From Elusimicrobiota bacterium (GTDB lineage Bacteria; Elusimicrobiota; Elusimicrobia; UBA1565; UBA9628): 64,000 nt of DNA. Shown piece by piece: positions 52,213 through 55,200 of this stretch. Position 1 is the first letter of the stretch. Each line of letters starts with the position of its first letter. Position numbers: made by a program. The DNA lies in NCBI GenBank assembly GCA_016218575.1, contig JACRDN010000016.1:257306-321305 (forward strand), written 5' to 3'.

Positions 52213-55200
52213 TAGAACGGCTGGTATAACACGGTAGCAGGTGCCAGGCACCCTCCGGGAGCCAGGCACCGCTAGCGTCGGCGATCGACCACGTAAGCCG
52301 AGCCGGGCTGCTGCTTGGCGAATTTTTTGAGCTCGGCGCCGTAATGCGAGATTTGCGCGTAGGAGGTAAGGCTGCGCAGCCCGTTATGGCAGATCCCTAT
52401 GGCGATGGAGAGCAGGGGAAACTCGACCACTCGCCCCTGCCTGTCGGTTGAGACGATTTTTTTATTCTTGCGATCCTTCGCGTTGTAGAAGATGGGCGCC
52501 ATGCCATCAAAATCCGTGATGATATCCCGAGAGAGGGCCTCCATGCGCTTGGGATGCGTCAGGACGATGAAGTCGTCCCCCCCAATATGCCCCACGAAAT
52601 CCTCCACCACGCCCTTGCCGCCGCGCGTTAGCTTGACGAGAATGTCGGCAGTGGCCTTGATGACCTTGTCGCCGGCCTCGAAGCCGTAGGCGTCGTTGTA
52701 GGCCTTAAATTGGTTAAGGTCGAGGTAAAGGACGGCCAAGGGCTTGCCCGACTCGATGGCCTCCTTGATCCTCCTTTGGATCGAGACGTTCCCTGGCAGG
52801 CGGGTGAGGGGATTGGCGTCGAGGCCCTGCTGGGTGCGCTTCAAGATCATGTGGATGCGCGCCAGGAGCTCCTGGAGATCCACGGGTTTGGTGATGAAGT
52901 CGTCGGCGCCGAGGTTGAGCCCCTTGATTTTGGTGTCTCGGGTTCCCGCCGCCGAGAGCAGGATCAGCGGCAGGTGCTCGTAGAGAGAGTCCTTGCGCAG
53001 CTCCCGGCAGACCTCGAAGCCGTCCATGCCGGGCATGCGCAGGTCCAGGATCGCGATGTCCGGCGCGCGGGCGCGTATGGAGTCGAGGGCTTGCCTCCCG
53101 TTGTCCACCGTCTCCACATGAAAGCCGGCCATCTCCAGGCTTTGCTTGATGACGATTAGGAGGTCCGGCTCGTCATCGGCCAGCAGGATGCGATGCTTAT
53201 TGTCGGAGCTCACGAGCCTAGTTTGGTCGTAATTTGTGACCATGTCAAGAGTCTCCGCCTAGTGCTCCGACCGAGCCATAATGCGCGTTGTGGGGGCCCG
53301 GATTTGAGCTGGATGCTAGGAGCGAGGAGGGAGCATAGCGGTAGCTATGTGACCGACAAGCGACGCCGCAGGCCGCCAAAGCCGGACCCCCGCTCTATGG
53401 AGGAACTGTCTACGATCAAGATGTCAGCGATTTCCTTAAGAAGAGCGGCCGGACGCTTTTGGCCTACGCCTTCGTTGCGCTCGCCTCACAGGCCTTTCAG
53501 GCATGCTCGGCTCGCGCGCCTCGGCTCGCTCCAAAAGCGGCCGGCCACAACGCGCATTATGGCTCGGTCGGAGCACTAGTCCCGTCGGGCCGAGAAATTG
53601 ACAGTAATTCTCAAAAATTGATAAAATGACTTTGTAAGTTTCTTGCATGTCCGTCGATCCCGAGGAGTCTGACAAGAAGCAAAACGGGGCCGCCGCGTGG
53701 GCCTTCGCGCTGGGCGCGGGAACGCAGCTCGTGACCAGCGTTCTCCTGGGCTTTCTCGCGGGGCAATGGCTCGACGGCAAGCTCGGGACCGGGCCGTGGT
53801 TGATGTTGTTGGGCGCTTTCTTGGGAATCAGCGTTGGACTCTACCAACTTATCAAGGCGCAGGCGCGTCGCGACGGCCGTTAAAAGCTCTTTGGAAGCAG
53901 CCTTGGCGGTGGCGGCGGCTCTGACTCTGGCGGGCATGTTCGGGCGGCCCGCGGAGCAGTGCCGGGGCGCGGCTGTCGGGCTGAGCGCGGCGTGGCTGGC
54001 CTCAAGCCTGAGCACATTCGCGTTGATCTGGACCAAGGCCGTTTCCGCGGAGGCCTTTTGGTGGGCCTTCGGCGGGGGAATGGCCCTGCGCGCGGCGGCG
54101 CTTGGCTGCCTCATGGCTTGGAGCGCGCGGGCCAAGGGCGTTGCGCCGGCGGCCATGCTCGTCTCCTACGCCCTGGGGGTCTTGGTTTGCTTGATGGTGG
54201 AGTATAGGCACATAAAATTAAAATGAATTTCGAACGCATCCTCGAGCATCACCTGATGGATCACGCCCTGGCCTTCAACCTCACCAAGCATCTGGTGACG
54301 CTGTGGTCCGTCAGCGCCGCCTGCGTCGCTCTGCTGTCCTGGGCCGCGCGCAGCCGCTCGCGCGCCGGGCTGCTCTTGCGCGGCGCGGTCGAGGCCGTGG
54401 CCCTTTACCTGCGCGATGCGGTGCTCGAGCCCATATTCGGCCATTCCACCGCCACCTATTTGCCCTATTTCCTAACATTGTTCTTCTTCATCCTGGCGTG
54501 TAATCTGGTCGGCCTCCTGCCCGGCGCAGCCGCCATCACCGGCAACATTTCCATCACTTTCGCCCTGGCGAGCTGCACCTTCGGCTTGATCCATCTGGCC
54601 GGGGTCAAGGAGCAGGGTCTTTTTTCCTATATCGCCCACATCGTTCCGGGCGGCCTACCGAAGGTCCTGGTTCCTCTCATTTTCCTCATCGAGATCGTAG
54701 GGCTCCTGGCCAAGTGCATCGCCCTCTGTATCCGGCTCTTCGCCAACATCATCGCGGGGCATATCGTCTCTCTGGCATTCCTGTCCCTGATCTTCATTTT
54801 CGCGCAAATGAGTCCCTACATCGGGCTCGGTGTCGCTCCAGCGGCCGTGGGTTTGGCTCTTTTTGTCTACGCACTGGACGTCCTGGTCGCGTTCCTGCAG
54901 GCGTACATCTTCACCTTTCTCACCGCCTTGTTCGTCGGCGGCGCCGTACACCCGCATTAGCGGAGGTCGCAAACGGCGGCTCATGAAGCGCGCCGACCAA
55001 GGGGCCAAGGCCCCGAAGCAGGAGGTCGTTAGAATGCTGTATCTAGGACTAAGCTACATCGGAGTGGGAGTAGGGGCGGGGATCTGCCTCGTCGGCGCGG
55101 CCATGGGCATCGCGAAGCTCGCCCGGGCGGCGCTAGAGGGCGCGGCCCGCCAGCCGGAGGCCGCCGGCTCCCTGCAGACCATGATGATCATTCCGGCCGC

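Follow-up and report, generated by a model that had tools for sequence, protein, structure and literature searches.

A probable palindromic, MITE-like mobile element between a response-regulator/GGDEF gene and the ATP synthase operon of an Elusimicrobiota bacterium

Results

A 321-bp inverted-repeat element upstream of the atp operon

The stretch of DNA analysed here (the window, 64,000 nt of contig JACRDN010000016.1 from the Elusimicrobiota assembly GCA_016218575.1) is chromosomal and carries dnaA, dnaN, gyrB, parB and recA. In it, a gene for a response regulator with a GGDEF domain (RR-GGDEF) and the operon of the F-type ATP synthase (atp) are transcribed divergently, and the space between them holds a non-coding element of 321 bp with long terminal inverted repeats and the tetranucleotide CTAG at both extremities. 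This element, the subject of the present work, is probably a copy of a dispersed family of small, non-coding and almost fully palindromic mobile DNA, a ‘foldback’ element resembling bacterial MITEs (miniature transposable elements with inverted repeats). Its parts, the other family copies and the surrounding genes are listed in Table 1.

The left arm of the element, CTAGTGCTCCGACCGAGCCATAATGCGCGTTGTGG (53259-53293, plus strand), has its exact reverse complement at 53545-53579, which gives a perfect inverted repeat of 35 nt; with mismatches allowed the arms extend to 48 nt at 90% identity (53259-53306 and 53532-53579). A preliminary description of the locus had the left arm at the same position and the right arm (minus strand) at 53544-53578, a slip of one nucleotide, and its estimate of about 250 bp of enclosed DNA agrees with the 251 nt that separate the perfect arms (225 nt for the extended arms). 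It had also judged the repeat to be far beyond chance. None of 100 dinucleotide-preserving shuffles of the window gives such a repeat, and by our own analytic arithmetic the expected number of perfect 35-nt inverted repeats with arms within 500 nt of each other in 64 kb is about 1e-14. The window has no second long inverted repeat of this type. In G+C content the element (62%) matches the window (61%).

The junction between the flank and the right arm is found again in Logan contig L001 (SRR12113407), which is independent of the window assembly and whose atp operon encodes an AtpZ protein identical to that of the window. L001 begins 14 nt inside the right arm (L001:1-14 corresponds to window 53566-53579), with a T in place of the G of the window; this may mean that the assembly graph broke at the inverted repeat, or that the population has a second allele.

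Further copies at unrelated loci

The open frame of the element was translated and compared exhaustively with 1.84 billion proteins by phmmer. Three predicted proteins matched, and their DNA carries homologous elements in three other metagenomes, at loci unrelated to one another and to the window (L013, L014 and L015; Table 1). In a four-way alignment of these copies with the window copy, each with 20 nt of flank on either side, similarity is bounded exactly by the left CTAG (CTGG in L013) and the right CTAG, and the flanks beyond show no relationship. Columns are on average 73-75% identical over the whole element, and a family profile recovers the four copies by nhmmer with E = 1e-79 to 1e-89. 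The elements measure 280-321 bp, have terminal inverted repeats of 33-48 bp and share the ends CTAG TGCTCCGACCG ... CGGTCGGAGCA CTAG.

The matching proteins start with LVLRP (CTA GTG CTC CGA CC) and/or end with RSEH-stop (CGG TCG GAG CAC TAG). These are the termini of the element in translation, so the proteins are best taken as spurious open reading frames (ORFs) called across related elements. In the window the frame of 53193-53579 (plus strand) stays open through the element until the TAG of the terminal CTAG, as is also the case in L014; a frame open across the element would lead gene callers to predict spurious proteins, here P0121-P0124. P0124 is a fifth member of the family, known as a peptide, which matches the family elements in tblastn with E = 3e-6 to 1e-3. 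At L013:2137-2156, where the left end is CTGG, the called ORF of the upstream gene enters the left arm and ends at a TAA there.

The window itself also contains what appears to be a degenerate left-end relic of a related element, 3.4 kb from the intact one. Against its ungapped score (Table 1), positions anchored on CTAG give a mean of 24.3 and a maximum of 33 matches, and about 5000 random positions give a maximum of 34; the right ends of the family score 26-28/70 on the relic, which is no match. By nhmmer alone the relic falls short of significance (E = 0.76). Its terminus, CTAGTGTAGTGTCCC, is of the type obtained, by eye, when the C-terminus of P0124 (...YLWDTTLG) is back-translated. Additional copies, for which the preliminary description had proposed a search, thus comprise three full DNA copies at unrelated loci, the P0124 peptide and the relic in the window.

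Searches of DNA collections with short probes returned no further members. Neither a set of 185,579 representative genomes nor the JGI metagenome contigs gave a match to the arm 20-mer GAGCCATAATGCGCGTTGTG. The window's own copy is unmatched as well, so its source genome is not in those DNA collections. The outer 19-mer has one match in the representative genomes (L005), inside a coding region and with no inverted partner, and TGCTCCGACCGAGCCATAA matches three JGI metagenome contigs that represent one locus (L006-L008), where 19 nt agree before the sequences diverge, again with no partner; both are regarded as chance. Viral contigs (four patterns) and blastn of phages and plasmids yielded no copy, and the concatenated six-frame translation has no match in a word-indexed protein collection.

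The element is non-coding

The preliminary description had called the interior non-coding, and the searches agree with it: Pfam gives no match in any of the six frames of the element (E ≤ 1), and Rfam gives none at E ≤ 1 in the window region, L009, L013, L014 or L015. Among the copies, the frame-0 peptides are 37-51% identical, against about 75% identity of the DNA.

A palindrome with co-varying arms

The perfect arms enclose two sub-hairpins and a variable centre (Table 1). The right sub-hairpin is weakly complementary to the left one, so the whole element, and not just the arms to which the preliminary description had drawn attention, is a degenerate palindrome; the interior palindrome score of the window copy is 19, compared with a mean of 5.8 and a maximum of 18 for shuffled sequence and a maximum of 16 for genomic sequence. 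Outside the interior, the terminal 15 nt are nearly invariant. Arm positions 16-33, in contrast, are very different among the copies yet remain complementary within each copy.

Of the 96 pairs that RNAalifold places in the consensus, 33 have changed on both sides without loss of pairing; 96% of the cells are paired. Column shuffles do not reach any of the observed pairing measures (0/500), and sliding the partners by 1-3 columns lowers pairing to 31-39%. The terminal helix is 97-98% paired, with 13 compensated pairs, and there is almost no replacement of Watson-Crick pairs by G-U in the stem. Folding is stronger than that of shuffled sequences with z = -8 to -10.7, equally so for both RNA strands and for DNA, as is expected of a DNA palindrome.

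Two arrangements of the interior emerge from the folds of single copies. L013 forms one uninterrupted rod (127/127 pairs) and L015 mostly a rod, while the window copy and L014 fold as a terminal stem that closes two sub-hairpins and a small central hairpin. Projected on the alignment, the rod model is 85.7% paired, well above the controls, and the modelling supports both the rod and the three-way junction.

Between atpI and atpB, and hence inside the atp operon, another locus carries a hairpin element of a different sort (L009:719-880, the same in L010; Elusimicrobiota metagenome-assembled genome GCA_964388045.1), about 165 bp long and with 44-nt arms of its own. The apical module of this element (GGAGCGAGCATACCGGTCGGTATGTGAGCGA) shows homology to the family sub-hairpin (nhmmer E = 1e-9), and the stem that closes the loop carries a compensatory change. 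The similarity suggests that the module is portable and shared, and that Elusimicrobiota have related families of repeats.

Related loci lack the element

Six related Elusimicrobiota loci (L002, L003, L004, the L009/L010 pair, L011 and L012), whose regulator proteins are 65-69% identical to that of the window, were available for comparison. The RR-GGDEF gene is kept in all six, and the divergent order of RR-GGDEF and atpZ is visible in five; in L012 the contig stops 132 bp upstream of RR-GGDEF. By alignment and by the nhmmer family profile, the element is absent from every one of them. The intergenic region is 109 bp long in L002, 118 bp in L003, 175 bp in L004 and 51 bp in L009/L010, whereas in the window it is 403 bp, or 433 bp with the GTG start at 53213 used by NCBI. 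In L011 the space between regulator and atpZ holds an ordinary gene for a 160-aa membrane protein, and the extra sequence there was rejected as a repeat for this reason.

When the loci are aligned, the block of the atp promoter is conserved and the element stands out as a single clean extra segment. Its removal, with the GTG start, leaves an intergenic region of about 112-116 bp, like that of the relatives. Related loci have the same gene order without the element, so it is to be read as a lineage-specific insertion relative to the related genomes.

Genes and promoters flanking the element

To the right of the element lie atpZ, an atpI-like gene and atpB, in this order, and then the remaining genes of the F-type ATP synthase operon. 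To the left, the regulator gene is represented in NCBI by P0001 (313 aa), a protein of a metagenome-assembled genome that is 100% identical to the regulator and corresponds to the alternative start GTG 53213. This start fits the N-terminal length of the orthologues.

The promoter scan reports a single site in 53000-54000, the promoter-like site of the atp operon, 18 bp beyond the right end of the element. On the opposite strand a second TTGACA box lies 10 bp to the left of the element; upstream of GTG 53213 the window reads TTGACA-17-CAAACT, which ends 6 nt before the start. The earlier placement of the repeat in a shared regulatory region is therefore accurate in the sense that the element falls between two divergent TTGACA boxes, a position that leaves the predicted core atp promoter intact despite the insertion. 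The boxes are 349 bp apart at present; with the element excised and one CTAG kept, the spacer between the atp -35 box and the opposite-strand TTGACA shrinks to 32 bp.

On the GTG-start model, which we favour, the element would lie upstream of both core promoters and need not be transcribed, and its effect would be limited to separating the two promoters and replacing the upstream DNA. With the alternative start, ATG 53243 and its GGAG, the start of the regulator transcript would have to be within the element or on its far side, and the leader would include a long hairpin. An influence of a cruciform or RNA hairpin on both genes, as the preliminary description proposed, would be hypothetical. 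The most likely consequence at the locus, as judged from the arrangement of these sites, is neutral or a mild change of the upstream promoter context.

Two observations concern the regulator side and the regulator itself. In the orthologous loci an extended -10-like motif, TGnTATAnAGG, is found 7-9 nt before the first regulator-side start codon (L002:2950-3000, L004:2975-3000, L011:990-1024), which suggests that the regulator-side transcripts of these relatives are leaderless; the motif is absent at the window regulator gene. The GGDEF domain of the window regulator has GGDDF in place of GGDEF/GGEEF and its best Pfam stretch covers the first 92 of 161 profile positions; the protein may not be an active diguanylate cyclase.

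Table 1. Positions of the element, its parts, its family members and the adjoining genes and promoter-like sites. Positions are those of the window unless a locus is named.
Feature	Position	Strand	Size or repeats	Evidence
Complete element, non-coding, palindromic	53259..53579	.	321 bp	similarity to copies L013, L014 and L015 has exactly these limits, flanks unrelated; nhmmer family profile E = 5e-87
Left terminal inverted repeat	53259..53293	+	perfect 35 nt, imperfect to 53306	sequence self-comparison
Right terminal inverted repeat	53545..53579	-	perfect 35 nt, imperfect from 53532	sequence self-comparison
Nearly invariant terminus CTAGTGCTCCGACCG, mirrored at 53565-53579; candidate recognition/cleavage site	53259..53273	+	15 nt	alignment columns 1-15 and 318-332 invariant save single substitutions
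Left internal sub-hairpin with conserved module GGAGsGAGnATAGCsGTAGCTAT	53295..53391	.		folds; compensated pairs in helices 2-3
Variable centre, richer in AT, forming a small hairpin	53392..53446	.		alignment columns 134-199 gappy, unconserved
Right internal sub-hairpin, bounded by GGCCGGACGCTTTTGG / CCAAAAGCGGCCGGCC	53447..53546	.		weak complementarity to left sub-hairpin
Family copy	L015:68-347		280 bp; arms 36 nt at 97%	
Family copy	L014:373-684		312 bp; arms 48 nt at 90%	
Family copy	L013:2137-2451		315 bp; arms 38 nt at 89%	
Putative degenerate left-end relic of related element, terminus CTAGTGTAGTGTCCC	49840..49909	+		38-40/70 ungapped matches to family left arms
Response-regulator/GGDEF gene	52272..53243	-		Pfam Response_reg 6e-32, GGDEF 6e-16; P0001 100% identical
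Candidate -35 (TTGACA hexamer) of RR-GGDEF gene if start is GTG 53213	53243..53248	-		read from sequence; aligns with yCGACG in orthologues
atp promoter-like site TTGACA-18-TAAAAT with upstream TG	53598..53627	+		11/12 matches, promoter scan; block conserved in orthologous loci
atpZ (ATPase_gene1), first gene of the atp operon	53647..53883	+		Pfam PF09527; identical protein in L001

CTAG ends and transposase sequences

CTAG stands at all eight ends of the four copies, one of them mutated to CTGG, and there is no direct repeat outside it. The tetranucleotide is strongly under-represented in the window (58 observed against about 227 expected), and its presence at all ends despite this rarity indicates that it is part of the element or a preferred target. 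The insertion sequences (IS) IS630 and IS870 insert into CTAG and duplicate TA, and IS5 duplicates YTAR; each of these modes would produce ends of the kind seen here. The terminal CTAG of the window copy (53259-53262 and 53576-53579) could be part of the repeat, a TA duplication within a CTAG target or a 4-bp CTAG duplication; CTAG is palindromic, so these three readings look alike in the sequence. The statement of the preliminary description that there is no clear target-site duplication holds for the DNA outside CTAG and does not hold as a negative for CTAG itself, which is ambiguous.

The window was scanned for transposases by Pfam on ORFs of at least 120 aa, other than a clpB-like gene (36406-38886) and four short ORFs of the atp region. 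The only transposase sequence among them is a truncated DUF772 (IS5/IS1182-type) fragment. This fragment, and a pair of 21-nt repeats beside a beta-lactamase-family gene, were considered as sources of parental ends; their similarity to the arms is within chance.

The fragment belongs to a segment of about 2.3 kb (49679-52271) that is itself an insertion relative to the orthologous loci. In most of these the thiolase gene adjoins the regulator gene, directly (L009/L010) or after a gene for a 128-aa response regulator. The window has two copies of the thiolase gene's 3' end (49679-49796 and 52090-52207, 96% identical), and between them lie the relic (49840-49909), the beta-lactamase-family gene (50006/50199-51538) and the truncated DUF772 transposase ORF (51600-52229). 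The 21-nt direct repeat that flanks the beta-lactamase-family gene is TCTAGGAGCCyGTCCGAGTAA (49896 and 51534). Further downstream, a gene for an NAD-dependent epimerase/dehydratase (58270-59355) is located between the genes for the alpha (56454-57977) and gamma (59357-60229) subunits of the ATP synthase and breaks the usual order of the operon.

Discussion

The element combines small size and lack of coding capacity with terminal inverted repeats, several copies with unrelated flanks and element-free relatives, all of which are features by which MITEs are recognized. Its sharp ends, long inverted repeats, absence of coding sequence, copies at unrelated loci, relic and absence from relatives together make a small, non-autonomous mobile element much the most probable interpretation. 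The preliminary description had compared the architecture to that of a MITE or a solo pair of terminal repeats, and the other copies and the element-free relatives lend support to that comparison. In prokaryotes a genome may have as few as 1-22 copies of a MITE (PMC10969869). The family appears to be previously undescribed: it has no sequence similarity to any described family in the collections searched, and a literature search returned no paper on MITEs in Elusimicrobia, the two terms occurring together in one paper, once each and in passing.

The element would be moved in trans by a transposase encoded elsewhere. Ends that are always CTAG fit a cut-and-paste enzyme that targets CTAG, with TA duplicated as in the IS630/Tc1 type or CTAG duplicated as in the IS5 type, and at the present locus the element would have landed in the 32-bp spacer between the divergent TTGACA boxes. 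The co-variation of the arms and of the interior stems suggests either that the folded single strand matters, as in the movement of REPINs (hairpins built of repetitive extragenic palindromic, REP, sequences), or that the arms are homogenized by templated hairpin repair.

Several points weigh against a MITE-like mobile element. The window contains no autonomous parent or transposase with matching ends, and it holds one intact copy and one relic only. No copies were found in the 185,579 representative genomes or the JGI metagenomes, though the probes used there reached into the variable inner arm. The CTAG at every end is palindromic, so that a target-site duplication is not provable. The element-free orthologues are distant, as the identity of their regulators indicates, and provide no empty site at the nucleotide level. 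Finally, the co-variation of the inner arms is not predicted for a simple transposase that binds double-stranded DNA.

The last of these points bears on whether the element is instead a REPIN-like unit, mobilized as a single-stranded DNA hairpin by a single-copy HUH/tyrosine transposase (a REP-associated tyrosine transposase, RAYT, or one of the IS200/IS605 type) and not by a DDE enzyme. The symmetrical layout with conserved ends and a variable yet complementary middle, the abundance of compensated pairs, the two alternative folds (rod, or stem with sub-hairpins) and the lack of an unambiguous target-site duplication all speak for such a unit, but at 280-321 bp the elements are three to four times as long as the REP doublets of PMC3116915, their arms are not short REP hairpins and contain no recognizable REP unit, both ends carry CTAG, and Pfam identifies no RAYT or IS200-type gene among the window ORFs of at least 120 aa; we consider it unlikely. 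An improbable but more far-reaching version would see in the family a new type of mobile element of Elusimicrobiota and relatives that depends on the hairpin and is distinct from conventional MITEs derived from transposase ends, with the single strand, folded as a 150-bp rod or as a three-way junction, as the substrate, the 15-nt CTAG-containing termini as cleavage sites and the apical module GGAGCGAGCATAGCGGTAGCTAT... as a portable functional unit. Co-varying pairs in the terminal and internal stems and very stable folding would also be expected of a structured non-coding RNA or a cis-regulatory hairpin that acts as RNA, for instance as an RNase III target or a stabilizer of mRNA, and has spread by duplication; the short related hairpin L009:719-880, which inside the atp operon must be co-transcribed, and the Correia elements, which are bound by RNase III and cleaved or protected (PMC2649163), add to the case. 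This is nonetheless very unlikely, given that the pairing is equal on both strands and as DNA, as a DNA palindrome would have it, that G-U hardly ever replaces a Watson-Crick pair in the stem, that Rfam has no matching family, that on the favoured start codon the window copy is upstream of both promoters, and that sharp CTAG boundaries with unrelated flanks fit insertion.

An invertible segment (inverton), in which the repeats serve as sites for an invertase and the 251-bp interior flips to switch the regulator or the atp operon on and off, would have the classic geometry of repeats around some 250 bp between divergent genes, and a gene for a tyrosine recombinase is present in the window (41674-42567). 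The recombinase is of the XerC/D type, however, and sits next to recA and 11 kb away, with no invertase nearby; no promoter-like site lies within 53259-53579, the only one in 53000-54000 being outside; inversion of a palindromic interior changes little; and the occurrence of the same element at unrelated loci with unrelated neighbours points to mobility, all of which makes inversion extremely unlikely. The chance that the structure is an assembly artefact, a hairpin chimera or mis-join at the repeat, is close to nil. The preliminary description had raised it, the source is a metagenome-assembled genome and the Logan contig breaks inside the right arm, but three further assemblies, independent and made from different samples, show the same architecture and termini, the interior does not amount to flanking sequence simply folded back, and L001 independently confirms the junction of flank and arm.

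Within the preferred reading of a MITE-like mobile element, comparison with known systems brings out both likeness and difference. Bacterial MITEs (PMC10969869, PMC2229807) are likewise small, non-coding, intergenic and dispersed, with terminal inverted repeats and a stable hairpin, and insert near promoters; unlike them, the present element is palindromic as a whole, its inner arms vary and stay complementary, and it is without a known parent IS. With the MITEs of the IS630/Tc1-mariner group (Stowaway-like) it shares long inverted repeats, a hairpin shape and CTAG ends that fit TA duplication in a CTAG target, but the TA duplication is here inseparable from the CTAG borne by the repeat, and no IS630-type transposase was found in the window.

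Correia elements measure about 100-155 bp, have 26-bp repeats and can create promoters at their ends. Those of Neisseria resemble the present family as non-coding units with a conserved core that are bounded by inverted repeats and lie beside genes whose expression they can alter (PMC2649163); the repeats described here differ from them in sequence, occur in a different phylum and contain no detectable outward promoter-like site. The hairpin of a transcribed Correia copy is a substrate of RNase III (PMC2649163). REPINs, with their RAYT transposases (PMC3116915), parallel the family in palindromic replicative units, conserved ends, compensatory changes across the hairpin and alternative folds, hairpin or ‘clover’ there and rod or clover here. 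The invariant 16-mers of a GI doublet are separated by 71 bp (PMC3116915); the element here is three to four times longer, has no recognizable REP motif and was not seen with a RAYT gene among the scanned ORFs of the window.

At the locus itself, the extra 320 bp between a cyclic di-GMP-type regulator and the ATP synthase operon is an insertion and not an evolved regulatory region. The spurious ORFs that cover the elements give a practical handle for finding non-coding repeats in protein databases. The clean co-variation of the arms in only four copies makes the family a case in which selection on a folded intermediate can be set against templated repair. As a kind of feature the element is fairly ordinary; for the Elusimicrobiota, a poorly studied and uncultured phylum, it would represent a new family of small mobile repeats and a handy marker of strain-level variation and of assembly breaks in these metagenome-assembled genomes.

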